Positions 6,854 through 30,057 of a stretch of DNA of 32,670 bases are shown here, piece by piece (the first letter of the stretch is position 1; the number at the start of each line of letters is the position of its first letter). The DNA is from a virus. Its lineage: Duplodnaviria > Heunggongvirae > Uroviricota > Caudoviricetes. The stretch lies in the IMG/VR virus record IMGVR_UViG_3300045988_129198, one strand, 5' to 3'. Under the pieces are notes generated by a model. That model was not told where the DNA came from and made no database searches. It saw nothing but the letters and a program-made list of their open reading frames with translations. The translations under genes were made by a program, and so were the position numbers.

Positions 6854-6876
6854 ATCAAATCTGACAGTCTGCTTTG
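6854..6876 (+). repeat. Repeat site L (core CTGACAGTCT), left boundary of the accessory cassette
   Basis: ATCAAATCTGACAGTCTGCTTTG; a near-identical direct copy at 9164-9186 and an inverted copy at 9287-9308. Confidence 0.7.
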
Positions 6877-7004
6877 AGCGAAAAGTGGACATTAGAGTTA
6901 CAAAAGCAAGTTTAAATCATCCAAAATATTACAATGTCCTTATCTATCTGATATCGTTATGATAAAAAGCTCCTGAATATAATCGATAGTAGGTGGTTAT
7001 TTCC

Positions 7005-7382
7005 ATGAAATCAATTTTAGAGGTTTTTACTCAAGGAAATACTAAAGAAAAACTGGCTGTTATCGCCGATCTCACAACCATTGCGGGAATATCGATTGCA
7101 ACTATTATTGCTGGTTTGTTAACCCTAGTTGCAAAAACAGATAAACTAGATATTGGAAATCTGTTTGGAGTTGTCATAATATCTCTGCTCGGATTGGCTG
7201 GTGTTTGCTGTTTTGTGGCCTTATTTATTTGGGTTATAACCCAAATGTCTAAACCATGGGGAACACCTCGGGGGGTTCAGCCCTTAGTTAAGTGTGCTAT
7301 TTCCCTTATCTTTATCTGTATGTTTTTACTGGCTGTCTTTACATTTTATGAGTTTATTTCTTCGATGAGCATACGCTATTGA
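7005..7382 (+). CDS. Small integral membrane protein (3 predicted TM helices), function unknown
   Basis: ATG at 7005 preceded by AGGTGG; the track ORF begins at GTG 6993. Three hydrophobic segments of about 20-25 aa; AT-rich codon usage unlike the phage backbone. Confidence 0.6.
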   Translation: MKSILEVFTQGNTKEKLAVIADLTTIAGISIATIIAGLLTLVAKTDKLDIGNLFGVVIISLLGLAGVCCFVALFIWVITQMSKPWGTPRGVQPLVKCAISLIFICMFLLAVFTFYEFISSMSIRY

Positions 7383-7404
7383 ATATAAAATCAGCCCCCA
7401 TAAC

Positions 7405-7989
7405 TTAAAAGAGACCTTCTATATCGACTTCAATGCCCAAATAACGGACTGTGCTTTCCAGTTTCTTATGGCCCAACAGAAGTTGGATCACCCGGAGACT
7501 CTTGGTTTTCTTGTAGATTAAGTAAGGTTTTGTTCTTCTCATGGAATGTGTGCTGTACAGCGAATCTTCGAGACCAAGCTTTTCTACCCACCCATGAAAA
7601 ATTCGGTTGTATTGCCGGGTTGATATATGGTGGTTAGTTCCGACCCGAGAGCGGAACAGGAAGCCTTTACTATGCAAGTTGCCGAGCTTTATCAATGCAG
7701 TAACCGCTTCCCTTGTCCCTTTGGTTATCTCAAATTGGACAGGGCTGCCGGTTTTCTGTTGCAACACCGTTGCTCTGCTTGAGACAGAACTGCCATATGC
7801 AGCATCTGATACTTTGAGTTTGACCAAATCACAGCCCCGTAGCTTAGTGTCCAAAGCCATGTTGAACAGAGCTAGATCGCGTGTTTTACCTTCCAACTCA
7901 AGTCTAATCCGGATCCCCCAGATATGAGATATCTGAAGTGGCCTTTTTTGACCGATGGTACGGTCTTTATTCCACGGTGACGTTTTCAT
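7405..7989 (-). CDS. Small tyrosine recombinase (FimB/FimE-like size, phage-integrase catalytic fold)
   Basis: C-terminal HSMRRT...LRVIQLLLGHKKLESTVRYLG resembles the HxxR / LGH / Y boxes of tyrosine recombinases, and LRGCDLVKLKVSD resembles box I. First ATG at 7987-7989 with AGGAG 7 nt upstream; the track ORF extends to a TTG at 8091. Confidence 0.7.
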   Translation of the reverse strand: MKTSPWNKDRTIGQKRPLQISHIWGIRIRLELEGKTRDLALFNMALDTKLRGCDLVKLKVSDAAYGSSVSSRATVLQQKTGSPVQFEITKGTREAVTALIKLGNLHSKGFLFRSRVGTNHHISTRQYNRIFHGWVEKLGLEDSLYSTHSMRRTKPYLIYKKTKSLRVIQLLLGHKKLESTVRYLGIEVDIEGLF

Positions 7990-8095
7990 ATTCAAATCTC
8001 CTGCAATGTGGGAGATTTGAGTATGGTTGTCTCTCAAGAGCGAAAATAAGTCAACTATCACTAGTTGTTGCGCATGTACGTATTCTGTCAATTAA

Positions 8096-8938
8096 TTATT
8101 GACAATCATCAATTCTGGAATGATCAAAATCATCATATCGAATTATAGTCTGGTTGACTGTATCTATTGTTGGTGTCATTTCTGTTATAATATCCTGATA
8201 ACCTAAAGAGTTAAATACATTTACTAAGGCCTCACACCGAAGGGCCGTAGCAATTACAAAATTATAAATTGCCAGCCGTTTATTTTCTTGTTTAACTGCA
8301 AGAATGAATTCGATAGCAGTATTTTCATCACTTTGGATTGCATTATATAGAGATACTATATTTACCATATCATCAGAGAATGTATGTATTGAATCACAAA
8401 GGGGAACGTAATGGGCATGATAGTGTGTTTCCCAGCCAATTAATTCAAAAAGTTTTCTGGTTCCTGGATATTCAGGTGTATTTGGCCACAATCTATTAAA
8501 TAGATCAGTTAGTTCTTTTCCCATGCGAATCCTTTCATTTGCTGCTGGATTAGTCATTCCTTTGGATTTTAAACACTCCAGCCACCGTTTTCCATTACTA
8601 TGAACTAATTTCTTACTAGCCTTGAGTAATGCTTGTGCATTTTCGCCATCATCTATTGCTATATAAAATTGATTGGCAGCCTGTTCTATTATAACCCTAG
8701 CTAATACTTCCGATGCTGAAAAGGCTCCTATATTCAAAGAAGAGATAGCCTGATTACTAAGTTCATTCAGTACATTAAAGTACTGTAAGACCATCAATTT
8801 TTGTTCCACACCCTTTAGGTTGTCTATTTTATTTTTATGCTCCTCAAATTTTGCATGGATATATTTATTTATCGCGGCTATTTTTTTTACATCTTCGTCA
8901 AGATCAAACGGGCAACGTCCAAACAATTCTTTTTTCAT
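8096..8938 (-). CDS. Hypothetical 280-aa protein (cargo gene, no motif recognised)
   Basis: ATG at 8936-8938 with strong AGGAGA RBS; AT-rich; located upstream of and co-oriented with the recombinase gene. Confidence 0.75.
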   Translation of the reverse strand: MKKELFGRCPFDLDEDVKKIAAINKYIHAKFEEHKNKIDNLKGVEQKLMVLQYFNVLNELSNQAISSLNIGAFSASEVLARVIIEQAANQFYIAIDDGENAQALLKASKKLVHSNGKRWLECLKSKGMTNPAANERIRMGKELTDLFNRLWPNTPEYPGTRKLFELIGWETHYHAHYVPLCDSIHTFSDDMVNIVSLYNAIQSDENTAIEFILAVKQENKRLAIYNFVIATALRCEALVNVFNSLGYQDIITEMTPTIDTVNQTIIRYDDFDHSRIDDCQ

Positions 8939-9163
8939 ATATTTCTCCTGTTGTACAAGCTTCCATACGTTGGCAGATTATACACTGAAGATTACCTATA
9001 AATAGCTGTGCGGGATAGCAGATCAGTGCAAGAAGTACAACCAAGTGAACTGTGCGTATTCAGATACCTGGCCTAACGTTCGCGATAGCCGTCCCCTGCA
9101 CGAAGCCATATATTAGATGTATTAGCTCAGACCTTATCTGACAGGTTGAGTAGGTAGAATCTA

Positions 9164-9186
9164 ATCAAAGCTGACAGTCTGGTTTG
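9164..9186 (+). repeat. Repeat site M (direct copy of L)
   Basis: ATCAAAGCTGACAGTCTGGTTTG, 21/23 identical to site L. Confidence 0.7.
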
Positions 9187-9286
9187 GACTGTGAGTTCAA
9201 CTGATGGATGCAACACACAGCGATCTACGGACATTACTAGCATAGCTGTGTATTAATCATCGGGAAGCAGGTCAGTCCGCTCCTAG

Positions 9287-9308
9287 CACAGAGCAGACTG
9301 TCAGATTA
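9287..9308 (-). repeat. Repeat site R (inverted copy of L/M), lying in the loop and 5' arm of a 10-bp-stem hairpin
   Basis: Reverse complement AATCTGACAGTCTGCTCTGTGC; 16 nt identical to L; flanked by stem 9284-9293 / 9316-9325 (TAGCACAGAG/CTCTGTGCTA). Confidence 0.7.
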
Positions 9309-9359: not shown

Positions 9360-9887
9360 TTATTGCGGCATTTCCGGCCATTCAGGATTTGCAGGATCCA
9401 CACGGCTGACCAGAACACTGTAGCGTTCCCATGCTTCCAGTCGGCTACGCTCCTCATCTGTTGCCATATTCAGTCTGACAGAGCGTTCCAGTGGCTGAAT
9501 GATAGTTTCAGCTTCGGAAAGCAAAGCTGACTTCTGTAATTCCGCCAGTTGCAGCTGTTCGTCTGCCGTATAAATCCGCTTAATCACGGCACCATCCTTA
9601 AACATCCATTTACCTGAGTCATCAGCACGTCGGTTGGCGGTAATATCAGGAACCTCGACAACGCTAAAACCTTCAGGGTTGAGCGTTGAAGCATCTCTGG
9701 TGATGCCGACAATTATATTATTCTCATCGTAAACAATCTTTATCGTGTCTTCCTGAAAATTACTTACTTCCTCATACCAGTTTTTTCCCTCTTCGGACCA
9801 TAACCAGATAACATCAAAATTTTTTGTCAGTTGATATTGGGCAACAGTTTTTGGATTACCCGCAGTAATATTTTTTAAATGCTGCAT
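9360..9887 (-). CDS. G: Tail fiber assembly chaperone gpG
   Basis: 175 aa; P2 gpG size; immediately downstream of H. Confidence 0.85.
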
Positions 9888-9890
9888 AAA

Positions 9891-12626
9891 TTACACCTGT
9901 GCGACGTTATACCATGTGCCATTGATGTATTTTTGTATTGGTCTGAATACTGCGGGGTCATCACCATCGACTTCACCGACAATACCAAGCCCGGTAATTA
10001 CGTGCCCTGCTTTCTCATACATCACCCCTTTCTGCATGGTCTGGACAACACGTGTGCCAAGTCTGACATCTCTCACATAGCGGGAATCAAAGTTACCGTA
10101 ATCCGAGGGATTAACACGCCCCGTAATATTTATGGTTTTATTACTTTGAACGCTTCCGGAGACAAAGCGCATAACATGGACGCTATTAGCATAAACATCC
10201 AGATTACCATCACCATTTTGTTTAAAGCCCGTGTCATTATCACCCAAAACAATCGAATTACCGCCAAGAGCACTGGATGTTCCTATACCCAGAGCACCAT
10301 TCAATTGACCACCAGATAACGGCAGTGCACCGACATCTCCCGCTGTAGGTTTTCGCGTTGTGGTATAAAACTCAGACCAGTCAGCCTCGAATCCGTAACC
10401 GTCACGAGCAGAACGATAAAAAATACCACCGTTCTTATAATTAACGCGAAACTGGGCGGCGGGACAACTTCCTTCCCCGATATTAAAATGAAGAATTAAC
10501 GTTGATGCCCCACCAATAGTTGCGTTATAGGCTCCGCTACTCCAGTTCCATCCAACGGCTTTATCATTCGCAACGGTGTCTCCTGTTTTTCCTGAAGCAA
10601 ATGCACCAATACTTTTCGGCGTCAGGTTAATATCTGATGTTCCATCAAACGAAACGTTATTAATTTTACGGGCTGTTTTCAGCTTTGTTGCTGTCGCCGC
10701 ATTGCCGGACAGTTCACCAGAAAGGCCAGCACTGAATGTCTGTTTCGCGCCCCATGTCTGGGCTTCGTCAATGATTGGTACTCGTCTTGTTGTGATCGTG
10801 CGGCCTCCCGGATTTCCTGAAATGCGCACCATAAAAAAGCGGTAGTTGGCTTTACTTACAGTGCTGCGCCATACATGCATTGAGCGCCCCGAACCAGAAT
10901 CATCACTCGGACCGACTGAGATGTTTATCAGGTTGCCATCAATGACGCCCCAGTCCATACCGTCGGGAATGTTGGTCATATTATCAAGCCGAACGGTTAT
11001 CAGACTGCCCGGCACAAAATCGTAGGTCTGCCAGTCCAGACTGGATAGTTTTGCCACTGCGCCACCGATGCCCAGATTCAGAGGCAACGAAAAGGAGTTA
11101 TATACTTCTCGCCATTCGGTCCATTTGCTCCCGGCATAGACGCGCTCAAAAGTGCGCCCCTGTGTGGTTTCTGATTTCCCTGTGGTTGTGTAACGCTGCC
11201 AGACAGATACACCATCAAAACGCCTGATTACTTCCAGTATTCCAAGCAGTGTCGCTCCAGCGGTATCCTGCATTGGACCGTTTGACGCCTTCCCTGTAAC
11301 GCTGTAAATGCCTGGCGAAGTCAGATCATTCAAATCACCTTCGTAATAACGACATTCTGACTGATGGCCTACTCTTGACCACGGCTCCCACTGTGGGTTC
11401 TGTGCATTCCATATAGCAGAAAGGCAGCGAACATATACGTTCCCACGGCGGGTCGTATAGCGTTGCGTGCGTGAGTACCCACCACCCTCAAGAACTTCAA
11501 GGAATCCCTGACCATAACTTCCTTCTTCCGGATAGTTGCGGTCAAATGAAGCGATAGTGCCACTACTGTTTCGCCATAAACCAAGATGCTCTGCGCCTCC
11601 TAGCGTGTTCAGGTCAATAGTTGTGCTCAGGGGGCGTGTTGCAGACTGAATCTGACGCCAGTAGATCCACGGACCGTCTGAGCCATTCCAGGTGCCAGAA
11701 AGATTACGCATATAAACATTGCCAGTTCTGGTGGTATAACGCTGCATTCCGGAAAAATTACCGCCATTGAATACCTCAAGAACACCGACTGCACCGTCTT
11801 CAGGGAAATTTTTCTCCAGTGTTGCGTTGGAGGATGTGGATTTATACCAGACACCCACATAAGCCTTAACTGGACCAAATGTATTGAGATCAGCATCAAC
11901 CGGCATTTCGCCGTTGTTTTTCATAAACGTCAGGCTGGTAACACCAATATTGTCCAGAAAAGCTGATTTATCCTGGATATCTGCACCGTTCTGATTTTTC
12001 GCCAGACGTGAATTTGCGTTGTCATTTGCTGCCTTGACCGCTTTTGGCGTTGCCGCCAGCTCTTCACTGGTGCTGTTTGTTGCACTGCTTAACTGAGTAA
12101 AACCTTTTTCTGTCAGCGTGGCGTCAGGATGGCGGCGGGACTGCTCATGCTCTGCGATTTTGTCATCGACGTAATCCTGCGTCGCCATCACTGTGCTGGC
12201 ATCAATACTCAGCTCAACGGACGCCACGTTGCTGAGAATAATAACCATGCGGCAGGTCTGCGCACGTCCGGAGCCTTCAGCCAGTTCTGGCTTATAGCTT
12301 TCAGCCATGTTGGATACCGCAATCAGTGTTCCGGCATCGTCATACAGACCAAGCTCACGCATCCAGAAGCCGCCCACTTCGGGCGGTACAACCAGTTCAG
12401 CCACAATATAGTTTTTATTCTTATTATCCACACTGACTTTATTCAGAGCGTGACGCCAGACCTCATGCACCAGTTTCGTCTGACCGGCATCCGGCACCGG
12501 TAATTTGCCATTACCGTCACCCACGGCCATTGCAGACAGGTTTACTTTTTTCCCGCCGGGGACAGTGGCGGCTGCCAGCTTTGCGGCTCCGGCAGTAGTG
12601 ATAACGGTTTTAAATTTCGTGCTCAT
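9891..12626 (-). CDS. H: Tail fiber protein gpH (911 aa, three internal tandem repeats, extended C-terminal region)
   Basis: N-terminus MSTKFKTVITTAGAAKLAAA is the conserved P2 H baseplate-attachment region; three repeats of about 90 aa each contain QRYTT(R/T)xGNVY. Confidence 0.9.
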   Translation of the reverse strand: MSTKFKTVITTAGAAKLAAATVPGGKKVNLSAMAVGDGNGKLPVPDAGQTKLVHEVWRHALNKVSVDNKNKNYIVAELVVPPEVGGFWMRELGLYDDAGTLIAVSNMAESYKPELAEGSGRAQTCRMVIILSNVASVELSIDASTVMATQDYVDDKIAEHEQSRRHPDATLTEKGFTQLSSATNSTSEELAATPKAVKAANDNANSRLAKNQNGADIQDKSAFLDNIGVTSLTFMKNNGEMPVDADLNTFGPVKAYVGVWYKSTSSNATLEKNFPEDGAVGVLEVFNGGNFSGMQRYTTRTGNVYMRNLSGTWNGSDGPWIYWRQIQSATRPLSTTIDLNTLGGAEHLGLWRNSSGTIASFDRNYPEEGSYGQGFLEVLEGGGYSRTQRYTTRRGNVYVRCLSAIWNAQNPQWEPWSRVGHQSECRYYEGDLNDLTSPGIYSVTGKASNGPMQDTAGATLLGILEVIRRFDGVSVWQRYTTTGKSETTQGRTFERVYAGSKWTEWREVYNSFSLPLNLGIGGAVAKLSSLDWQTYDFVPGSLITVRLDNMTNIPDGMDWGVIDGNLINISVGPSDDSGSGRSMHVWRSTVSKANYRFFMVRISGNPGGRTITTRRVPIIDEAQTWGAKQTFSAGLSGELSGNAATATKLKTARKINNVSFDGTSDINLTPKSIGAFASGKTGDTVANDKAVGWNWSSGAYNATIGGASTLILHFNIGEGSCPAAQFRVNYKNGGIFYRSARDGYGFEADWSEFYTTTRKPTAGDVGALPLSGGQLNGALGIGTSSALGGNSIVLGDNDTGFKQNGDGNLDVYANSVHVMRFVSGSVQSNKTINITGRVNPSDYGNFDSRYVRDVRLGTRVVQTMQKGVMYEKAGHVITGLGIVGEVDGDDPAVFRPIQKYINGTWYNVAQV

Positions 12627-12636
12627 TGTTTCTCAC

Positions 12637-13167
12637 TTATCCGGGATAAACAGTAATAACATCACCATCACAGACCACACCGCCTGTATACAGGTAGCCG
12701 GGAATGTCCTGGGTAATGTTCAGACCAATAAGGTGACGGCTTGCGGGTTTGGCATCAGCAATCAGTCGCTCCATTTCCAGATACATTTCCTCTGTGATGC
12801 CGCTTTCCAGTACACCAATATCGAGCCGGAAGGTGCCGGGCGGGTCATTGTTTTCCCACCACTCCGTCACATTGATGAGATAGCCGAGCGGCTCCACCAC
12901 ACGCCGGATTGCGCCGACAGTGCCTTTATGACAGTGGATGAAATAGGCATCGCGGATAACGGCGCGTTTTGTCGCTTCCGGCCACTTTTCATCCCACCTG
13001 TCGACCGAAAACGCCCACGCCAGCCACGGCAGCAGATTTGCCGGACAGGTGTCCGGGTTCCACAGCTCACGAATACTGACCGGCGTTTTTTCAATTTCCG
13101 CACAGGCTTTTGCAGCGGCGACTTCAAGCGGTGATGAGCCGGTCGGCAGCAGTCGCGAATCACTCAT
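12637..13167 (-). CDS. I: Baseplate protein gpI
   Basis: 176 aa; P2 gpI size and position. Confidence 0.9.
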   Translation of the reverse strand: MSDSRLLPTGSSPLEVAAAKACAEIEKTPVSIRELWNPDTCPANLLPWLAWAFSVDRWDEKWPEATKRAVIRDAYFIHCHKGTVGAIRRVVEPLGYLINVTEWWENNDPPGTFRLDIGVLESGITEEMYLEMERLIADAKPASRHLIGLNITQDIPGYLYTGGVVCDGDVITVYPG

Positions 13168-14068
13168 CCGAGCCTCCGGTCACGACGCGGTATTCGGTAC
13201 AGAAAGACGCCTGCGTGCTGTTAAGCACGATATCGGCCAGCGGTGCAGCCAGTTCGACACGCTGCACGCCTTCCACATGCAAAGCGGCATAAATGGCAGA
13301 CAGACGGATGTCGCGCCCCAGCCGGTGCTGTGCCGTGATGTACGCTTCCAGTTTTTTCACTGCAGCAGCGCGAATTGGTTCGCTTTCGGGACCAGGGTAA
13401 AGGTAAAGCGTGGCGTTTATCTGGTATTCAACGATGGCGGCAGACTGCACGGTCACGCGGTCGGCCACCGGTCTGACGTCCTCGCCATTAAGGGCGTTAC
13501 GCACCACCGCCAGCAGGTCTTCGGAAGCGACACCGTTATTTTCACGTGACAGCACAGAGATGGTGACACAGGCCGGAGACGGACTGGTGACAGAGATATC
13601 CGCGACACGCCCGTCGGCACTGCGGCCATGATACTGATAGGCACCCACCGACCCGGCGACGCTTAAACCTTCAAACGCCTGCTGAATACGCAGACGATAA
13701 TCAGTGTCAGATTCCATTACTGCCGGTGTCGGCGGGATGGTCGAATCATCTGCTGGGGTGATAATCAGGCGCGTGGTATTGTAATTGGCACCAATCACAT
13801 CAAGGTCATTACCGGCGGCACTGGCCAGCATCACCGCCCGTGCGGCCTCATTCACACGCTGACGCCAGATAAGCTCACGATAAGCATTTTCCTCCAGCAG
13901 TTTGACGAGAGGTTCGGATTCCAGCGTCAGGGTATGGGCGACCGCCTCCTGCTGGTCTTCCGGGTAAAGGGAAATCAGTGTCGCCTTGCGTTCGGCAAGA
14001 ATGGTTTCAAAGTCCAGCTCCTCGACCACATCCGGTGCGGGTAGCTGGTTCAGGTCGATAATCGGCAT
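13160..14068 (-). CDS. J: Baseplate protein gpJ
   Basis: 302 aa; P2 gpJ size and position. Confidence 0.9.
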   Translation of the reverse strand: MPIIDLNQLPAPDVVEELDFETILAERKATLISLYPEDQQEAVAHTLTLESEPLVKLLEENAYRELIWRQRVNEAARAVMLASAAGNDLDVIGANYNTTRLIITPADDSTIPPTPAVMESDTDYRLRIQQAFEGLSVAGSVGAYQYHGRSADGRVADISVTSPSPACVTISVLSRENNGVASEDLLAVVRNALNGEDVRPVADRVTVQSAAIVEYQINATLYLYPGPESEPIRAAAVKKLEAYITAQHRLGRDIRLSAIYAALHVEGVQRVELAAPLADIVLNSTQASFCTEYRVVTGGSDE

Positions 14069-14072
14069 GGTT

Positions 14073-14420
14073 TCAACTCACAGGGATGGTTAACGAAAGT
14101 GGCTGGCCGGTGTCGTTGTGCTGACCGGTTAACGTGACCGTCATTCGCCCGTCAAAACTGCGCTCAGTGGTGACGGATGACAGGGTGACGCGGGGTTCCC
14201 ATTTCAGCACCGCCATGTAACAGGCGACCTTAATCTGCAACTCAAGCGCCGGAGTCTGCGGCTGGTCAATCATTGACGCCAGCAACGAGCCGTAATCACG
14301 ACGCATCACCCGCGAGCCGACCGGTGTGCGCAGGATATCGCCGATACTCTGGCTGATATGCTCAAGGTCAGTGACAGTCAGGCCATCACTGCGATTCATT
14401 CCGAGATAACGCGCAGTCAT
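14073..14420 (-). CDS. W: Baseplate wedge protein gpW
   Basis: 115 aa; P2 gpW size and position. Confidence 0.9.
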   Translation of the reverse strand: MTARYLGMNRSDGLTVTDLEHISQSIGDILRTPVGSRVMRRDYGSLLASMIDQPQTPALELQIKVACYMAVLKWEPRVTLSSVTTERSFDGRMTVTLTGQHNDTGQPLSLTIPVS

Positions 14421-15052
14421 AGAGGTCCCCCGGTTGTGCCGCCGCTGTCGCCGGGGTGTTTATGGGTATGCAGTACCTTACCGTTTGATGAGAGTTCACC
14501 GCCGGTGTGTTCAATGTTGCCGCGCATCGTCCCGCCCTTCTGTACTTCCAGCGTGCCGGTAATCAGTCTGTTGGTGCAGACCACCTCCGGGGTGTCCAGG
14601 GTGATGCGGGTTGACGCTTTCACCATGACTACCGGCACCGTGGCGGTAACAGAATCAGAAGCCGTCACGCTGGCCGTTTTAATTCCGCTTACCATCAGTG
14701 CACTGGTTTCAGGTTCATACTCAATCACCGCCCCGTCAGGGAAACGTATGTGCAGGGCATCCGCCGACGCAGACGGCGGAGGGTTATCGCCGGAATAAAT
14801 CCCCGGCAGAACGAACGCCGTGTCGAGTTCACCGCCCACGGCCAGAATCAGCACCTGTTCCCCCACGGAAGGTGCCCACCATGTGCGTGAACGTCCGGCA
14901 CGATGGGTCAGCCACTGAAGCCAGTCGGTGCACATGCCGCCGGTCTGCACACGGCAGCGACCGGCGTTAAGGTCGGTTTCGACGATAATGCCGGGGCGTA
15001 TCATGTTGCGCAGTGCGCGCGCGAGTTCCTGGATATTTGCGAGTGTTTTCAT
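14417..15052 (-). CDS. V: Baseplate spike protein gpV
   Basis: 211 aa from the ATG at 15050-15052 (MKTLANIQELARALRNMI...), the P2 gpV length; the track ORF extends upstream to a TTG. Confidence 0.9.
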   Translation of the reverse strand: MKTLANIQELARALRNMIRPGIIVETDLNAGRCRVQTGGMCTDWLQWLTHRAGRSRTWWAPSVGEQVLILAVGGELDTAFVLPGIYSGDNPPPSASADALHIRFPDGAVIEYEPETSALMVSGIKTASVTASDSVTATVPVVMVKASTRITLDTPEVVCTNRLITGTLEVQKGGTMRGNIEHTGGELSSNGKVLHTHKHPGDSGGTTGGPL

Positions 15053-15109
15053 AAGATCTAGCATGCTGCTGAGAACTGATGAGAACAATAAAAGAGTGTT
15101 TTTCTAAGG

Positions 15110-15142: not shown

Positions 15143-15185
15143 GATTACTTAACTGGCAAAAAAACATCCTCACTAATTGGAGCCA

Positions 15186-16277
15186 ATGGATACACGCATG
15201 TCAGACATTCTAATTACTTATGATGAACGGAAAGATAAATTTGAGTCCTATGCCCTTACTCTTAAATCGTTATTAACCACGTTAATTCGCAATGAAAAAA
15301 TTTCAATTCACTCACTTGAATCAAGAGTTAAAACAAAAAAAAGCCTTGAAGGTAAGATTAATAAAAAGGGAAAATACAAGTCTATAGATGATATTACTGA
15401 TATCGTTGGTATCAGGATCATCACACATTATGCTGATGATGTTGATAAGATAGCTGCTATAGTTGAAAAGGAGTTCACCATTGACCAAGAGAACTCTATT
15501 GATAAAAGAACCTCAATTGCGCCTGATAAATTTGGTTACCTATCACTTCATTATATAGTAACTTTAAACTCAACCAGAACAAACTTAAAAGAATATGAAG
15601 TATATAAAAACATCAAAGCCGAATTACAAATACGATCAATCCTTCAGCATGCCTGGGCGGAGATTGAACACGACATTGGTTATAAGTCGGCCACAGGACT
15701 GCCTAATGAAATAAGAAGATACTTTTCACGCTTAGCTGGTCTTTTAGAAATGGCCGATGATGAATTTATTAAAATCAGAAAAAAGATTTCTGAACGGCAG
15801 AAAGAGGTTGCAAAAGAACTAGAGCAAGGAACTAGTGATTCAGTTTTAGATATTTTCACTTTGGATGAGTTCTTAAACACAAGTCGAATTATGAGTGAAC
15901 TTTCAGAAGAGATAAAAGAAAAAACAGGAATCACAGTACATGGCCGATACAAGGATAAAGATTTGGGATACCTACTAAATGGTTTAAACCTAGCCAACAT
16001 AACTACAATAGAACAACTCAATCAAAAACTCTCACAAATGAAAAAGCAGATCGTAGATAGAATATTCTGCTTCGGAGAACCATTTATTAATTATTGCAGA
16101 GAAACCCCCATGCCAAAAGAAGCTCTTTTGAGTTATTTATGTCAAATTATCGTTGCGTTTCAAAACTCACCTTCGTTAGAATCTGAATTTAATAACAAAG
16201 CAGGTTTAAATCTGAAAAACAGCAATATCTCCGATTTTTTCTCGAATATAAGAGAAAACATAAGCACACAACCTTAG
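15186..16277 (+). CDS. RelA/SpoT-domain nucleotidyltransferase (toxSAS), candidate fused toxin-antitoxin of CapRel type
   Basis: Synthetase-domain signatures SRVKTKKSLEGKI...DIVGIRIITHYADD and ELQIRSILQHAWAEIEHDIGYK. About 363 aa with a C-terminal domain of about 150 aa with no recognisable motif. Start is ambiguous (TTG 15177, ATG 15186 or ATG 15198). AT-rich, on the opposite strand to the flanking late genes, at the P2 orf30 position. Confidence 0.8.
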   Translation: MDTRMSDILITYDERKDKFESYALTLKSLLTTLIRNEKISIHSLESRVKTKKSLEGKINKKGKYKSIDDITDIVGIRIITHYADDVDKIAAIVEKEFTIDQENSIDKRTSIAPDKFGYLSLHYIVTLNSTRTNLKEYEVYKNIKAELQIRSILQHAWAEIEHDIGYKSATGLPNEIRRYFSRLAGLLEMADDEFIKIRKKISERQKEVAKELEQGTSDSVLDIFTLDEFLNTSRIMSELSEEIKEKTGITVHGRYKDKDLGYLLNGLNLANITTIEQLNQKLSQMKKQIVDRIFCFGEPFINYCRETPMPKEALLSYLCQIIVAFQNSPSLESEFNNKAGLNLKNSNISDFFSNIRENISTQP

Positions 16278-25853: not shown

Positions 25854-26477
25854 TCATACTAACTTGTCTATTGAAATTACAAGCTTTTCGATGAAGTTCT
25901 TAACTACTACCATATCATCACCAGTTATGGGCCAAGGCTCACGAGGTGTAATTGGTTGCATGTCACCTTCATGTGCTATCTTATTACGTCGATCAACAAT
26001 CGCATTCAGATTTAATCTCAGTGACTTAGATTCTAAATCGGCATTACTATTCGTAGCACCTTGATCTATTGCAACCTCTCTCCACAAGGAAATATTTGAA
26101 ATCAGCCTAATTCCATCAGCAATAGATTCACTGGTTTGATACGTTTGAATCCCAAGTTGTCGCCTAACTTCTAAGTCATAAATTTGGTCACGAGTCCAAG
26201 CGTTGTTAAAAATATTATTCATAACACTATGGGGCATTGTAAACTTATCGTATTTCTGCGTACTAGCCCTCCTTCCCTGAAAAATCTCAAGCATCCGCTG
26301 CGCGACAAGTTCATGAATATATAAATCTAAAGCAGAAACTCTAGCAACCCACTCAGCTCTCAGAATTTCTCGAGAATCAAATACACTCGAAAAATTAGTA
26401 GAAGTATAAGCATATGTCACAGATAACAAATCACATCTAATCCAAGCACGGTCAAATATCGATTTTGGCGTTGACAT
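25854..26477 (-). CDS. Hypothetical 207-aa protein with an R-x4-H motif (candidate HEPN-like RNase effector)
   Basis: C-proximal IVDRRNKIAHEGD contains R-N-x3-H; AT-rich; starts 4 nt after the upstream ParA-like gene's stop. Confidence 0.6.
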   Translation of the reverse strand: MSTPKSIFDRAWIRCDLLSVTYAYTSTNFSSVFDSREILRAEWVARVSALDLYIHELVAQRMLEIFQGRRASTQKYDKFTMPHSVMNNIFNNAWTRDQIYDLEVRRQLGIQTYQTSESIADGIRLISNISLWREVAIDQGATNSNADLESKSLRLNLNAIVDRRNKIAHEGDMQPITPREPWPITGDDMVVVKNFIEKLVISIDKLV

Positions 26478-26480
26478 ACT

Positions 26481-27524
26481 TCAATCTCTTGTCAGGGCGA
26501 TAACCCTTTCTGCACAAGTGTCAAATGCAGCAGAAAATACAGTCATATTTTTTTCCGTCTGATCCCAAACAGCGCCTTTCTGACCAGTCTGTTGGGCTGT
26601 CAGTGTGTAGACTGGAACTTGAAATTCCTGAGACATAGCAATCAGACTATTGAAATCAGAGACTTCCATTATTGGGTCAGAAGGAGGCATCCCTGCTTTT
26701 TGCTCAAACTCGACTACATCCAACATATCAAACTCAACAAGTTTCGGGATTAGCAAAGAAATTAAGTTATCTCGAAGTTCATCAATCCATTTTTGGAAGG
26801 CCGCAGATGCCTGACCATTGCGTGGTCTATACTTTTGGACGATAGAACCTATAAATTTCACGTTAGACTCAGGGAATGGATAGTTAGCATTCTGGAGCAA
26901 CTCCATTCGTGAAGCCATGTTTGCCCATTGTTTCCATCTTGGTAAAGTACGAGCGAGAGAAGAAAGGGCCATCGACGAGAAATAATCAGGATGAAGAGGT
27001 ACGATAAAATAATCTGATGTAGTTAAAATGTTTTGGTTCAATGGCCCCAGGCTCGGGCTCATATCAACAATCACATAATCTGCATTTACTTTTTCAGCAG
27101 TTAGGTCAAACAAATACCTGATAGAACCAGGAAGGTTTTTAAGTGGTAATAATGACCCCGTTAATTCTTGAGCTACACCTAATGTAGTTTCATACTCAGA
27201 AAGCCCAATATGGCCGGCAAGAAGATGCAAGTTTGCATTACCCTCGATATCAAACACTTCTGCAGGTTCAATCGCACTTGGTTTAGACTCAAAAGCAGGA
27301 GAAAGGGCGTCACGAATATTATTGGCTACTGGTTGATTATAAATCTGTTCTAAATCCGCAATGCCTCTAAATCCAAGAATCATTCCGGTAAGATTACATT
27401 GTGGATCACAATCAGCTAGCAAAACCTTATGACCTTTCTCAGCCAACTTCCAACCTAAGTTAAACGCAGTAGTAGTTTTACTTACTCCACCCTTATGATT
27501 AAACAAACAGATTACCTTCGCCAT
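26481..27524 (-). CDS. ParA/MinD-family P-loop ATPase
   Basis: Deviant Walker A KGGVSKTT near the N-terminus, DCDPQ A' motif and hydrophobic Walker B (YVIVDMSP); 347 aa; AT-rich. Confidence 0.8.
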   Translation of the reverse strand: MAKVICLFNHKGGVSKTTTAFNLGWKLAEKGHKVLLADCDPQCNLTGMILGFRGIADLEQIYNQPVANNIRDALSPAFESKPSAIEPAEVFDIEGNANLHLLAGHIGLSEYETTLGVAQELTGSLLPLKNLPGSIRYLFDLTAEKVNADYVIVDMSPSLGPLNQNILTTSDYFIVPLHPDYFSSMALSSLARTLPRWKQWANMASRMELLQNANYPFPESNVKFIGSIVQKYRPRNGQASAAFQKWIDELRDNLISLLIPKLVEFDMLDVVEFEQKAGMPPSDPIMEVSDFNSLIAMSQEFQVPVYTLTAQQTGQKGAVWDQTEKNMTVFSAAFDTCAERVIALTRD

Positions 27525-27722: not shown

Positions 27723-29792
27723 TTAAAATCGCTCACCACTTCTTTGCTGTCGATATCGCCGCTGTATATGGCATTTCAAAACTTCCCTAAATACCAACAC
27801 AGCTTCGGGGTCATCCCATGCTATAACACCGTCATCAACCAGATTAAGCACGGCTGCAGCATGTTCAGAAGGTGTGGGAGCCGGTAACGAAGTATCACTG
27901 CCGGTGAGCTTTCCACAGTTATTGACAGGACTCCGAGGCGCGGCGATGCCGCTTTTTAAAGTCAAAGGCTCAACGACCGGAACTTTCGGCACAATGCGCC
28001 AGTCCGTCGTTCTGGTGATATGAATATGACGCGCGCCGAGATGCGGCGCGTAAATGCCGACCACTCTCTCAACTTCTTCCTCGTACTCGTTAACGTCATC
28101 CGACGGGCTACGGGCAACCCTGACAGTCTGACAATCGCGCGGGACATTTGCCCCACCCTGCGCGCTGATATACAACGCAAAATCACCACTGTCTGCGGCA
28201 GCGCGAGCAGCCTCGACGCGTTCGTCAAACTCATCAGCAATACTGACGCCGCGAGGCAATTTGCGTAGTTCACGGTAAGCCCCCATTGTCGGCAGTCCAA
28301 CCGTTTTAAATTGCGGGATGCGCCACGTTGACGCCCATGCGGTAACAGCCGCGGCAGTATCTTTAAGCGGCTTACCGGTATCGTTATCGAGCTGACCATC
28401 CAGTGCATAGCCGTCGATATTTTTTGAAATGTATTTCGCGATATATCCCGCAGCACCGCCCCGGTTAAGGTGTTTTGCCTGAAAACGGTTTCGCGCAGCT
28501 CCTCTTTCATCGCCATCCTCTTTGAGCGCATAGCGACGCATGATTTCGATAATCTGGTTACGCTGGCGCGGATTACAAAAAAGCATCATATGCCAGTGCG
28601 GCGTTCCGTCGTGGTGTGGCTCGACGACACGCAAACCGTAGACCTGTAAATCATTATCCTTGAATGCCGTGCGCATCAGGCTCCAGATACGGCAGAGATA
28701 ACGCTGCGCATCCTTTGGATTAAATGCCTCATCGTTCCAGCCGTGATTAAGCTGCACGGTTTTACTTTCGCCTTTTCCGACCTGACGTGTCGGGTGATAC
28801 TTTGACGGCGCGGTCAGCGTGATAAACATCCCCACATCACCCTCTGCGGCGGCGTAACGCTCAATACCGGCAATGGTGTTCATCAGCTCCATCCGGCGAA
28901 TTTCAGGATTAGAAATACTGCCCATCACCTTACTGATAAGGTCGATGCGCTCGCCGGTTTCCCTGTTTTCGAGGTCACACGATTTAAGAAATTCCAGATT
29001 TGCCTGGCGGCGCGCACGCACATCACGAATGGCATGTTTACTGGCATAAGGAGAACGGTCTTTATTGACCTCCCCGACAGCTATCAGTAACGCCTCATGC
29101 CAGCGCATACGCTGGCCTTTAAGCTGATGAGTCCACCACTCATCGTTAAACAGGCGGGCAATGGCAGAATATGCCTGCCTCGTGGTCATCTGTCCTTTAC
29201 GGTATTTTTTCCAGTAGAGAGGGGAAATATTGAAAGCACGTGCAGCGCCAGCAACATGACCATACAGGTGAGCCTGCGCCTCATCCGTAAACAGCGATTC
29301 TTTTTCGCCATGCGCATCCACCCAAGCATCGCTGAGTTCCTCATACATCATGAAAAGCTGCGATGAGATACGGGCGGCAAACTTTTTCAGCTCCTTGTCA
29401 TTCATTCCCGGCAGTCGCGCATAGTGGTCACGCTCTGCCAGAAACAGCAACGACGCGTCGGTGTTCATTTCATGGCGCTGATTCACACGCTCAATGCGCG
29501 GCCATAAACGACGCTGAAAAGTGGATGTGAGGAAATAAAACCCGTGCACCGGGCTTTTATTGCGCCGGATGTAGTCATAGCGTGAAGTAAACAGCGAGCG
29601 CAAAAAGTAAGGCAGGCGGTTAATCGTGGATAAAACACCTTGCACCTGACGCATCTCGTCACGTGTAAGGGGTCTTTCGCGCCCGACAGCCTCGCGTGGC
29701 GCGTTCCATGCATAAGCACCGGTAAACGCCTTACCGGTGCCTGCAGCAAATGCTGACGGAGGGACAAAACGCCCGGAGGCTTTAACGGCCAT
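27723..29792 (-). CDS. A: Replication initiation endonuclease gpA (rolling-circle)
   Basis: About 689 aa from the ATG at 29790-29792 (MAVKASGRFVPP...); the track ORF starts at an upstream TTG. P2 gpA-like and directly downstream of the orf80-83 cluster. Confidence 0.85.
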   Translation of the reverse strand: MAVKASGRFVPPSAFAAGTGKAFTGAYAWNAPREAVGRERPLTRDEMRQVQGVLSTINRLPYFLRSLFTSRYDYIRRNKSPVHGFYFLTSTFQRRLWPRIERVNQRHEMNTDASLLFLAERDHYARLPGMNDKELKKFAARISSQLFMMYEELSDAWVDAHGEKESLFTDEAQAHLYGHVAGAARAFNISPLYWKKYRKGQMTTRQAYSAIARLFNDEWWTHQLKGQRMRWHEALLIAVGEVNKDRSPYASKHAIRDVRARRQANLEFLKSCDLENRETGERIDLISKVMGSISNPEIRRMELMNTIAGIERYAAAEGDVGMFITLTAPSKYHPTRQVGKGESKTVQLNHGWNDEAFNPKDAQRYLCRIWSLMRTAFKDNDLQVYGLRVVEPHHDGTPHWHMMLFCNPRQRNQIIEIMRRYALKEDGDERGAARNRFQAKHLNRGGAAGYIAKYISKNIDGYALDGQLDNDTGKPLKDTAAAVTAWASTWRIPQFKTVGLPTMGAYRELRKLPRGVSIADEFDERVEAARAAADSGDFALYISAQGGANVPRDCQTVRVARSPSDDVNEYEEEVERVVGIYAPHLGARHIHITRTTDWRIVPKVPVVEPLTLKSGIAAPRSPVNNCGKLTGSDTSLPAPTPSEHAAAVLNLVDDGVIAWDDPEAVLVFREVLKCHIQRRYRQQRSGERF

Positions 29793-30057
29793 ATGAGCCA
29801 AAAGCCTCTGAACAACGCCTGCTGAGTTGCTCAACCTGCGCGTTTAAATCAGCAAAAGACTTTGCGCTTCCGGTCAGAATATCGTGATGCATCAGGCCGG
29901 AAACGAGCTGGCTTAATTTCGGGTAATAACCAACCACCGCCAGCCATTCCTGACCGGCGTTTTTACCGCTTTCCGCTCTCTTTTTCTCGTGGAGAATAAA
30001 CTGAAAGCTGTCACTGGTAACGACATAACGTTCGCCAATTTCAATACGAAAACTCAT
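29782..30057 (-). CDS. Hypothetical protein (P2 orf83 position)
   Basis: 91-aa ORF placed by synteny between the DksA-like gene and A. Confidence 0.6.
   Translation of the reverse strand: MSFRIEIGERYVVTSDSFQFILHEKKRAESGKNAGQEWLAVVGYYPKLSQLVSGLMHHDILTGSAKSFADLNAQVEQLSRRCSEAFGSYGR

Follow-up and report, generated by a model that had tools for sequence, protein, structure and literature searches.

The minus-strand gene at positions 9891-12626 of the window, the 32,670-nt stretch of DNA that was analysed, is gpH, the tail fibre of a P2-like temperate phage, and belongs to the long (~910-920 aa) class typified by Yersinia phage L-413C GpH; the assembly and binding mechanism proposed for it below is judged likely. 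The gene lies in a complete P2-like (Peduovirus) genome in which the late operon is collinear with that of P2, with V (14417-15088), W (14073-14420), J (13160-14068) and I (12637-13167) preceding H and G (9360-9887) following it. The features expected of a Peduovirus gpH were all present, namely the PF12571 adaptor, the position in the V-W-J-I-H-G order with a Caudo_TAP neighbour, and a P2 H/Mu S-type tip (Table 1). The first-pass annotation had given 669 aa for P2 H against 911 aa for this protein, and both lengths were confirmed, from NC_001895 (reference gene, 12734-14743) and from the ORF. By analogy with P2 H and the L-413C GpH fusion protein, H would be a virion component mediating adsorption.

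Table 1. Positions of the H gene, its neighbours and the segments of the H protein in the window.
Feature	Position	Strand	Basis
gpH tail fibre gene, 911 aa, long (L-413C-type) class	9891..12626	(-)	ORF, ATG start; between I and G homologues as in P2
gpI baseplate protein, 176 aa, probable fibre docking partner	12637..13167	(-)	ORF; collinear with P2 I; annotated as I in P24B2 and E. coli S88
gpG tail fibre assembly chaperone, 175 aa	9360..9887	(-)	PF02413 Caudo_TAP E 6.7e-34; 89% identity to P2 G
N-terminal tail-collar/baseplate adaptor domain, aa 1-151	12174..12626	(-)	Pfam PF12571 E 3.3e-57
One PF03406 'phage tail fibre repeat', aa 170-211	11994..12119	(-)	Pfam E 4.6e-21; left mosaic breakpoint vs P2 at its end, aa ~203-207
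Predicted knob repeat R1, aa 241-328	11643..11906	(-)	Alignment vs R2; AlphaFold domain pLDDT 81-91
Predicted knob repeat R2, aa 333-421	11364..11630	(-)	z = 30 vs R1; AlphaFold domain pLDDT 77-86
Predicted knob repeat R3, divergent copy, most freely reassorting cassette, aa 427-511	11094..11348	(-)	hhalign; alignment; four-gamete pattern vs R1-R2 block
Fourth beta-sheet domain, knob-like size, highly conserved, aa 515-618	10773..11084	(-)	AlphaFold domain
Conserved linker with GNAATATKLKTARKINNVSFDGTSDINLT (GNAATATKL linker), aa 619-672	10611..10772	(-)	96-100% identity in all same-class homologues
Mu S'-like domain (Pfam gp37_C), aa 673-768	10323..10610	(-)	PDB 8ju3 (Mu S/S') domain i-Evalue 4.5e-49, 81% identity over 97 aa
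gp37-like shaft segment with LGDNDTGFKQNGDG..DVYANS, aa 769-843	10098..10322	(-)	PDB 6f45 (S16 gp37) E 2e-4; PF20744 weak
Distal tip, P2/Mu type, aa 844-911	9894..10097	(-)	84% identity to P2 H aa 602-669; Mu S C-terminus 5yvq domain i-Evalue 4.1e-15

The long fibre is not peculiar to the phage analysed here; as judged from sequence, it is a standing allele class. The H gene of Peduovirus P24B2 is 98.3% identical in nucleotides over 100% of the length, with only point differences, and the cargo genes between G and FI differ in that phage. A prophage of E. coli S88 carries a 911-aa gene that also shows only point differences, with knob-module DNA 99.8% identical, and has the same cargo genes; a PADLOC search of the cargo genes between G and FI gave no match. 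Long H proteins were found in P24B2 and vB_YpM_50 (911 aa), L-413C (913), phage 899 (909), and P24E6b, P24C9 and the 'Peduovirus P2' record OU784746 (919 each), and 313 of 5,426 complete E. coli genomes contained the module DNA at ≥80% of its length. A long mosaic P2-type fibre, known since 2008 from L-413C and common in E. coli prophages, is therefore real but ordinary. The first-pass annotation would have counted its reading as refuted if the added length were common to the nearest reference H proteins and carried no mosaic breakpoint. Half of this applies, as the closest relatives are equally long or nearly so; breakpoints relative to P2 are nevertheless present.

Similar to H, L-413C GpH has the same gene position, domain order and three knobs, and its residues 1-240 and the distal third, residues 641-911, are 95-100% identical to H, with G at 93%. 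The L-413C knob module, in contrast, belongs to another allele set (R1 47%, R2 69%, R3 47% and fourth domain 69% identity), and its synonymous divergence is saturated. The work of Garcia et al. 2008, as relayed by PMC7460101, presents L-413C GpH as a mosaic of a P2-like N-terminal 207 aa and C-terminus with a middle mixed from other enterobacterial phage fibres.

Alignment with P2 located two sharp DNA breakpoints, at window positions ~12021 (aa ~203) and 10097 (aa ~844). Between them a middle of ~1.9 kb has been replaced, aa 208-~770 having no P2 counterpart, and DNA homology restarts exactly at 10097 and continues through gene G. The conservation of the N-terminus claimed earlier was borne out by PF12571 and by identities over aa 1-207 of 84% to P2 H and 85% to the 669-aa H of Wphi; 186 K is 69% identical over aa 1-229. 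In P2, the N-terminal part of H binds gpI (preprint 10.64898/2026.09.14.750843). The claim that the C-terminal region differs holds for aa 208-~770 and fails for the tip, since aa 844-911 share 84% identity with the final 68 aa of P2 H. The proposed exchange of the receptor-binding domain was partly supported: the two breakpoints and the modules also found in T6-type gp37 and Mu S' make H a mosaic relative to P2, but the tip (84%) and G (89%) are of P2 type. The adaptor is thus common to H, P2 and Wphi, and the tip, chaperone G and V-W-J-I-H-G position are shared with P2. The middle of P2 H differs from that of H in having a second PF03406 repeat and neither pyocin-type knobs nor a Mu S'-like domain; a 2026 cryo-EM study describes it as extension and anchor domains, a helical 'P2 knob' and a beta-helical knob (preprint 10.64898/2026.09.14.750843). 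A short conserved island within the shaft segment is shared with P2 H aa 476-534. The tip occurs in two allele classes, and the tip class co-varies with the class of G.

The replaced middle has relatives outside the P2 family. The four-domain knob module (aa 225-640) occurs in gp37 of the T6/T2 type (T6, RB3, RB6, RB33, PST, JK23), in ~197 phage records that are collinear at 55-58% aa identity and 98-99% coverage, and the top structural match of the H model was the BFVD model of JK23 gp37 (E 1.6e-57, TM 0.61). The fibres differ in N-terminal attachment, which is to the gpI baseplate protein for H and to the gp36 joint for T-even gp37. T6-type fibres, unlike H, bear a separate gp38 adhesin at the tip that binds the receptor. 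PMC12892980 describes gp38 as the tip receptor-binding protein. The second set of relatives is Mu S/S' (5YVQ, 8JU3): aa 167-233 match the constant part of S, the domain at aa 673-768 is 81% identical to the variable part of S', and the C-terminal tip of Mu S matches aa 836-910. PF12604 also matched the Mu S'-like domain, borderline above threshold (23.0 bits; cut-off 22.5). The knob module is absent from Mu fibres, which are encoded with an invertible G segment, whereas H has neither such a segment nor an intact inversion crossover site. A search with the crossover site of 186 K, as annotated there, gave no match even with 8 substitutions allowed, and the homologous position matched at 14 of 26 bases by hand count, which ruled out the remnant of a Mu-type inversion site at the module's left boundary. 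A serine invertase gene was not seen either; the recombinase nearby is a tyrosine-type fragment in the cargo island.

The first-pass annotation had placed three tandem repeats of about 90 aa at 11120-11820. The repeats and their location were upheld, with a block that is slightly wider (11094-11906) and a period of 92-94 aa; R1 and R2 are clear copies and R3 is a divergent third. Since the identity match swamps all others when H is compared with itself by BLAST, segment-wise alignment with shuffles was used instead. R1 against R2 gave a local score of 195, compared with a shuffle mean of 28.6 (sd 5.5), giving z = 30, and this score was reached in 0 of 1000 shuffles. R3 compared weakly with the other repeats in pairs (z = 4.3 and 2.2), and was supported by profile-profile comparison (hhalign 88%, E 3e-6). 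A full-length repeat alignment, in which G18, P35, E44, V45, Q55, T58, W80 and W83 are invariant, and the strand pattern of the AlphaFold model give R3 further support. The motif reported for all three, G.LEV..GG...QRYTT.xGNVY, is complete in R1 and R2, but R3 retains only G.LEV and QRYTT. The AlphaFold strand pattern is the same in each, with six strands per repeat at pLDDT about 77-91.

The low pairwise scores of R3 speak for chance similarity or compositional bias, but such an origin for the signal as a whole is barely conceivable given the R1-R2 score, the profile-level match of R3, the common predicted fold and the 1,483 cluster representatives matched by the repeat profile (E <= 0.001) in a library of 1.84 billion proteins. 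The head-to-tail layout and regular period would also fit a recent tandem duplication of DNA, able to expand and contract and so variable in copy number among close relatives. We rejected this account, which we consider very improbable, because no DNA repeat unit was detected by Tandem Repeats Finder or direct-repeat searches; the repeats exist in the protein only, and the sole direct DNA repeat joining two units, 17 nt long and 88% matched, covers the QRYTT codons of R1 and R3. Protein identity is only 43% between R1 and R2 and 26% between R3 and R1. Moreover, the T6-type gp37 of phage JK23 (P0105) has the same three copies in the same order, the third weakly matched (E 0.7), the ~197 T-even genes are collinear over nearly the whole module, and all long-class Peduovirus H proteins examined carry three copies.

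By sequence profile and predicted fold, R1-R3 belong to the 'Knob' domains known from R-type pyocin fibres. The six strands predicted per repeat fit the pyocin Knob fold, an antiparallel beta-sheet of 5-6 strands joined by loops; three chains would build a trimeric, beta-prism-like knob with the sheets buried on its axis. Against PDB sequences the repeat profile matched the R1 pyocin fibre 6cl5_A (E 1.6e-4, chain residues 141-211, the Knob2 region), the R2 pyocin fibres 6ct8_A (E 4.3e-3) and 6cl6_A (E 7.2e-3), and tail fibre 9b45_2 (E 1.2e-5). The AlphaFold model of H (mean pLDDT 74.5) contains four beta domains, and Foldseek matched it to 6cl5_A (E 3.7e-6), to the staphylococcal phage receptor-binding protein phi11 gp45 5efv (E 2.8e-7), which Buth et al. 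2018 named as a Knob homologue (PMC6116203), and to the related staphylococcal phage receptor-binding proteins 6v8i, 9euf and 6iab. These fold matches are to a monomer model of a protein that would function as an intertwined trimer, and global TM-scores are low (0.2-0.3); several targets also hold beta-propellers, which stacked beta-meanders might attract. The cleanest support comes from the fold match to 6cl5_A and from the sequence-profile match, each of moderate strength. NCBI already names homologues 'pyocin knob domain-containing protein'. Pfam models left aa 225-670 uncovered and NCBIfam and Pfam scans returned no family for the knob region, and the name probably comes from a resource other than NCBIfam. 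Across the family, knobs occur in 1 to 8 tandem copies, 3 being commonest among the 150 best cluster representatives.

Like Knob1 and Knob2 of the R1/R2 pyocins (6CL5, 6CL6; Buth et al. 2018), R1-R3 are tandem domains of ~85-90 aa with the motif G.L.V...Q.Y.T..G..Y.R....W..W, and in both the pyocins and long-class H the knobs are the most variable part of the fibre. Sequence identity between the two sets is low, however, and H has three knobs rather than two. The distal ends also differ, H having the Mu/P2-type tip and a Caudo_TAP chaperone where the pyocins have an iron-containing shaft and a lectin-like foot. The fourth domain of the module resembles R1-R3 in size and strand order in the AlphaFold model, without sequence similarity to them (hhalign probability 0.1-0.4%) or a profile match; folded alone it reached pLDDT 68, and its best PDB fold match (E 0.11) was not significant. 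The alignment of many homologues ends at the end of the following linker, aa ~673, and the linker motif is found in one or several copies in other fibres.

Within same-class H proteins, identity was 47-98% in the knobs and 96-100% in the GNAATATKL linker, Mu S'-like domain and shaft. Knob dS ranged from 0.36 to saturated, compared with 0-0.12 for the same pairs in the adjoining segments (PF03406 linker, GNAATATKL linker, Mu S'-like domain and shaft). Knob dN/dS was 0.07-0.25. With synonymous sites near saturation, these low values ruled out positive selection on the knobs and are the reason for reading the pattern as old alleles plus recombination. Each knob has 8-9 allele classes, recombinants occur, and the combinations (0,0,0), (0,0,1), (1,1,0) and (1,1,1) were all present, a four-gamete pattern. 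Fully independent assortment of each knob was too strong a description, as R1 and R2 mostly go together, apart from one R1/R2 recombinant class, and R3 reassorts against the R1-R2 block. These comparisons show that, in the long class, recombination exchanges old knob alleles within flanks that hardly differ.

A host range different from that of P2 had been suggested and does not follow from the sequence, because L-413C, whose distal third is like that of H, and P2 vir1 depend on the same LPS-core residue of Y. pestis: each requires the terminal GlcNAc of the outer core, and heptoses of the LPS core as well (PMC3182234). L-413C is reported to be narrower in specificity, and a fluorescent fusion of its GpH attaches to Y. 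pestis cells (PMC7460101). Set against a near-invariant Mu S'-like domain and shaft, the diversity of knob alleles could mean that specificity is set by the knobs rather than the tip.

Two accounts of the knobs were weighed, and each seems to us rather unlikely. One makes the knobs, not the tip, the main determinants of host specificity, with lectin-like knob trimers reading LPS or O-antigen sugars and allele reassortment retargeting the fibre. The concentration of strong variation in the knobs, the number of allele classes and the recombinants favour it, as do the R-type pyocins, in which Knob2 is most diverse and has been proposed over the C-terminal foot as determinant of the killing spectrum, and the K1F endosialidase, in which a knob-like prism binds sialic acid (PMC6116203). 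Low dN/dS counts against this account, giving no sign of ongoing positive selection, and the tip too has two allele classes. The same module lies in the shaft of T6-type gp37, in a group whose receptor binder is a separate gp38 tip adhesin, a role that we take to apply to T6 itself. L-413C and P2 vir1, furthermore, share a receptor residue, yet P2 H has no such knobs. The other account, similarly doubtful, treats the knobs as purely structural, as spacers and trimer-folding nuclei that set length and stiffness, their diversity being neutral hitch-hiking from recombination. Strong purifying selection, the shaft position in T-even gp37 and the range of tandem copies, which fits a length-setting block, agree with it, and Buth et al. 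described the knobs as having multiple hydrophobic cores and as likely important in trimer folding (PMC6116203). Hitch-hiking, however, leaves unexplained why divergence is concentrated in R1-R3, when the fourth domain, linker and Mu S'-like domain of the same genes are 95-100% identical.

In the mechanism that we propose for the long-class fibre, the trimer geometry, the binding role of each part and the receptor are inferred. gpH would assemble as a homotrimeric fibre whose aa 1-160 dock onto baseplate protein gpI. The PF03406 repeat would be followed by the four-domain module, three pyocin-type Knobs of ~90 aa each and one further, unclassified beta domain, which the GNAATATKL linker would connect to the Mu S'-like domain, gp37-like shaft and P2/Mu-type tip, with the downstream chaperone G assisting tip folding. 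By analogy with L-413C and P2, the decisive LPS-core contact would most likely be made by the distal third; the knobs would lengthen and stiffen the shaft, with auxiliary sugar contacts probable. The gene probably arose by homologous recombination at conserved linker motifs with modules circulating in T6-type gp37 and Mu/P1-type fibres, and old knob alleles are still exchanged within the Peduovirus population.

Tail-fibre mosaicism has been described since the 1990s, and the current view of it is unchanged by this gene. In practice the gain is modest: it consists of a precise domain map for a common P2-family fibre class, one that includes the fibre of the plague-diagnostic phage L-413C. For host-range prediction or engineering, the three knob cassettes are the place to look, as variation is concentrated there. 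Fragments of the related P2 H fibre have already served to retarget R-type pyocins. A bolder and still less likely suggestion is that the knobs of E. coli/Yersinia Peduovirus are exchangeable sugar-reading cassettes whose allele combination, not the Mu S'-like domain or shaft, tunes the LPS core or O-antigen types engaged. Knob genotype would then predict host range among P2-like prophages and offer a handle for retargeting pyocins and phages.

The window spans the whole genome of a P2-like phage (Peduovirus), and its first 25 kb align at ~96% identity over 85% to Peduovirus P24B2, P24E6b, vB_EcoM-720R8 and several Yersinia pestis phages. The tail fibre gene H lies between homologues of the baseplate gene I and of the tail fibre chaperone gene G (see table), the latter encoding a Caudo_TAP chaperone with 89% identity to P2 G. 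The reference P2 H (NC_001895, 12734-14743) encodes 669 aa, as the first-pass annotation had stated, compared with 911 aa here; H lengths vary across the family, with 669 aa for Wphi H and only 462 aa for 186 K. The long H is a known allele class and not a peculiarity of this phage. DNA of the H gene is matched over at least 80% of its length by 28 phage records, with P24B2 H at 98.3% identity, and the protein measures 911 aa in vB_YpM_50, 913 aa in L-413C, 909 aa in phage 899, and 919 aa in P24E6b, P24C9 and OU784746, a record assigned to the species Peduovirus P2. The four-domain module comprises three repeats (R1-R3) and a fourth beta domain; of 5,426 complete E. coli genomes, 398 contain DNA of this module and 313 of these carry at least 80% of it. 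A prophage of the neonatal-meningitis strain S88 shows 99.8% identity and has the same cargo genes as the window. According to Garcia et al. 2008, as summarised in PMC7460101, L-413C GpH is a four-part hybrid: the N-terminal 207 aa and the C-terminus are P2-like, and fibres of other enterobacterial phages make up a mosaic middle part. A long, knob-bearing H was already known. The initial observation on H is confirmed and its interpretation partly supported: an exchange peculiar to this phage is not borne out, given H proteins of 909-919 aa in its relatives and the module DNA in E. coli genomes.

Features of the H region and of the cargo loci (window positions unless marked aa, which are residues of H)
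Feature	Position	Strand	Remarks
Baseplate gene I homologue	12637-13167	-	adjoins H on one side
H ORF	9891-12626	-	ATG start; 911 aa
Chaperone gene G homologue	9360-9887	-	adjoins H on the other side
PF12571 adaptor	aa 1-151
PF03406 repeat	aa 170-211		one copy
Three putative knobs	aa 241-511
R1	aa 241-328		head-to-tail unit
R2	aa 333-421		head-to-tail unit
R3	aa 427-511		head-to-tail unit
Fourth beta domain	aa 515-618
GNAATATKL... linker	aa 619-672		conserved
Mu S'-like domain	aa 673-768		81% identity to Mu S' variable part; 8ju3 domain i-Evalue 4.5e-49; Pfam gp37_C barely over threshold
Shaft segment	aa 769-843		likeness to S16 gp37 (6f45)
Tip	aa 844-911		matches Mu S C-terminus (5yvq); 84% identity to P2 H last 68 aa
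G/FI cargo island	6893-9275		33-37% GC
Cargo, DUF5677 protein	8096-8938	-	280 aa; Pfam E 5e-10
Cargo, short tyrosine recombinase	7405-8091	-	228 aa; PF00589 E 1.4e-17; TTG start
Cargo, ORF without family	6993-7382	+	129 aa
RelA/SpoT-domain protein	15177-16277	+	366 aa; PF04607 E 1.9e-21; PADLOC candidate PDC-S33 E 1e-16
Two-gene cassette	25854-27524	-	ParA/MinD-like ATPase, then RiboL-PSP HEPN protein
Replication gene A	27723-29834

The three tandem repeats reported in the first-pass annotation stand, R1 and R2 by shuffling and R3 by profiles and a structural model. Local alignment of R1 with R2 scores 195, compared with 28.6 ± 5.5 for 1000 shuffles (z = 30), and on their sequences the two units are unmistakably related. 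The pairwise signal of R3 in the same shuffle test is weak (z = 4.3 and 2.2). In a profile comparison, 65 R1/R2-type sequences align with 28 R3-type sequences at an hhalign E of 3e-6, residues G18, P35, E44, V45, Q55, T58, W80 and W83 are invariant in a joint alignment of the three types, and AlphaFold predicts the same six-strand pattern in all three repeats; together these support R3 as a full-length, divergent third copy. R1 and R2 contain the whole of the shared motif that had been quoted, G(x)LEV..GG...QRYTT(R/T)xGNVY, and R3 contains part of it. Since Tandem Repeats Finder detected no tandem DNA repeat in H, the duplication is ancient; the sole direct DNA repeat joining two units is a 17-nt match between R1 and R3 at their QRYTT codons.

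When searched against all PDB chains, the repeat profile matched the 9b45_2 tail fibre (E 1.2e-5), the R1 pyocin fibre 6cl5_A in its Knob2 region (E 1.6e-4) and the R2 pyocin fibres 6ct8 (E 4e-3) and 6cl6 (E 7e-3), and this sequence-profile match to pyocin fibres is independent of the structural model. The AlphaFold model of aa 225-680 contains four separate beta domains (mean pLDDT 74.5). Foldseek of this model against the PDB returned 6cl5_A (E 3.7e-6) and also the staphylococcal phage receptor-binding proteins 6v8i, 5efv, 9euf and 6iab. Of these, phi11 gp45 (5EFV) is listed as a structural homologue of pyocin Knob domains by Buth et al. 2018 (PMC6116203), and the other three are related proteins that also bind receptors. 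The predicted fold is supportive of knobs, short of decisive, because a single chain of a trimeric fibre was modelled and the global TM-scores are low. Close homologues are already named ‘pyocin knob domain-containing protein’ in source databases. The family is large, its profile matching 1,483 cluster representatives at E <= 0.001; among the best 150 of these, copies per protein range from 1 to 8 and three is the commonest number (54 proteins), which makes the triple knob typical. The fourth domain resembles the knobs in size and strand order, and is left unclassified because it has no sequence similarity to them and, modelled alone, no significant fold match.

DNA homology to P2 runs at 92% from gene V up to window ~12021 (H aa ~203), is then lost, and starts again at 10097 (aa 844) to continue through G, so that ~1.9 kb is replaced relative to P2; a 90-nt island of P2 homology (aa 786-815) lies inside the replaced part. 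The exchange proposed at first is real as a mosaic relative to P2, but the tip was not exchanged. The gp37 long tail fibre genes of ~197 T-even phages, including T6, RB3, RB6, RB33 and PST, align collinearly with the four-domain module (aa 225-640) at 55-58% amino acid identity and 98-99% coverage, and gp37 of Shigella phage JK23, as modelled in BFVD, is the best structural match by far. The module is also present after other N-termini and on plasmids. The module ends fall at the conserved PF03406 and GNAATATKL motifs, which is the classic pattern of tail-fibre module exchange at linkers that are conserved.

Across the long class, identity is 96-100% in the PF03406 and GNAATATKL linkers, in the Mu S'-like domain and in the shaft, whereas the knobs fall in discrete allele classes, with identities to the window's H of 98, 90, 75 or 47% for R1, 93, 80 or 69% for R2 and 94, 75, 60 or 47% for R3. 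L-413C GpH matches the window's H at 95-100% over aa 1-240 and 641-911 but at 32-80% in the knob module. Among 89 proteins we distinguished 8, 9 and 8 allele classes of R1, R2 and R3. The R1,R2,R3 combinations (0,0,0), (0,0,1), (1,1,0) and (1,1,1) were all seen, which proves recombination between the R1-R2 block and R3, and recombinants between R1 and R2 are rare in this set. Breakpoints do not lie exactly on domain borders. Synonymous divergence is 0.36 to saturated in the knobs, compared with 0-0.12 in the directly flanking segments of the same pairs, and knob dN/dS is 0.07-0.25. The knob alleles are thus old, purified and moved by recombination. Recent positive selection on the knobs was considered and rejected on these dN/dS and synonymous values.

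The tip has two allele classes, of ~100% or ~50% identity. Tip and G (window 9360-10097) are inherited jointly as one of two classes, a tip at ~50% accompanying G at 73-75% identity and a tip at 99-100% accompanying G at 90-95%. The variable knob module has its left edge (window ~11930-11965; H aa ~222-232) at the position homologous to the ‘Mu-like inversion crossover site’ annotated in the 186 K gene. This putative site is at most a relic, as it is degenerate (14/26 bases shared with the 186 K site in a hand count) and no invertase gene was seen.

In P2, gpI is bound by the gpH N-terminus, and the tip is folded as in Mu (preprint 10.64898/2026.09.14.750843). A fluorescent fusion of L-413C GpH attaches to Y. 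pestis cells (PMC7460101). In the LPS outer core of Y. pestis, L-413C and P2 vir1 alike need the terminal GlcNAc, and heptoses contribute (PMC3182234). Because P2 H lacks knobs yet shares its tip with the window's H, it is simplest to suppose that the decisive LPS-core contact is made by the distal end, the knobs lengthening the shaft and perhaps making secondary sugar contacts. We think it rather unlikely that the knobs instead set host specificity, a reading kept alive by their being the diversified part of H, like Knob2 of R-type pyocins, which has been proposed to outweigh the foot domain (PMC6116203). A host range unlike that of P2, which had been read from the sequence, is plausible but not inferable from it, given that L-413C and P2 vir1 need the same LPS sugar.

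Elsewhere in the window, the G/FI hotspot, which in P2 holds Z/fun, carries an AT-rich cargo island, which the E. coli S88 prophage also has and which P2, L-413C and P24B2 lack. PADLOC gave no match for any of the G/FI cargo proteins; a 2025 preprint (PMC12632615) selected DUF5677 as a candidate for defence. A 33-nt inverted repeat (AATCTGACAGTCTGC..., 82% complementary; window 6858-6890 / 9275-9307) brackets the island, precisely where homology to other Peduoviruses breaks off. The different cargo of L-413C is enclosed by a related inverted repeat of 25 nt (L003 6314-6338 / 7397-7421), and the same thresholds gave none in P2 or P24B2. The inverted repeat may mark recombination borders of the hotspot. 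The RelA/SpoT gene takes the place of P2 orf30, with the S and V homologues on either side and in the opposite orientation, and its E. coli S88 copy is annotated ‘GTP pyrophosphokinase’. It is a candidate CapRel-like defence gene, in which a toxic small alarmone synthetase would be fused. The two-gene cassette, with the portal/terminase end on one side and replication gene A on the other, has weak PADLOC matches (PDC-M28B) and encodes an ATPase of 347 aa (PF13614, E 6.6e-33) and a HEPN protein of 207 aa (PF18735, E 9e-12); it is probably further defence or conflict cargo.
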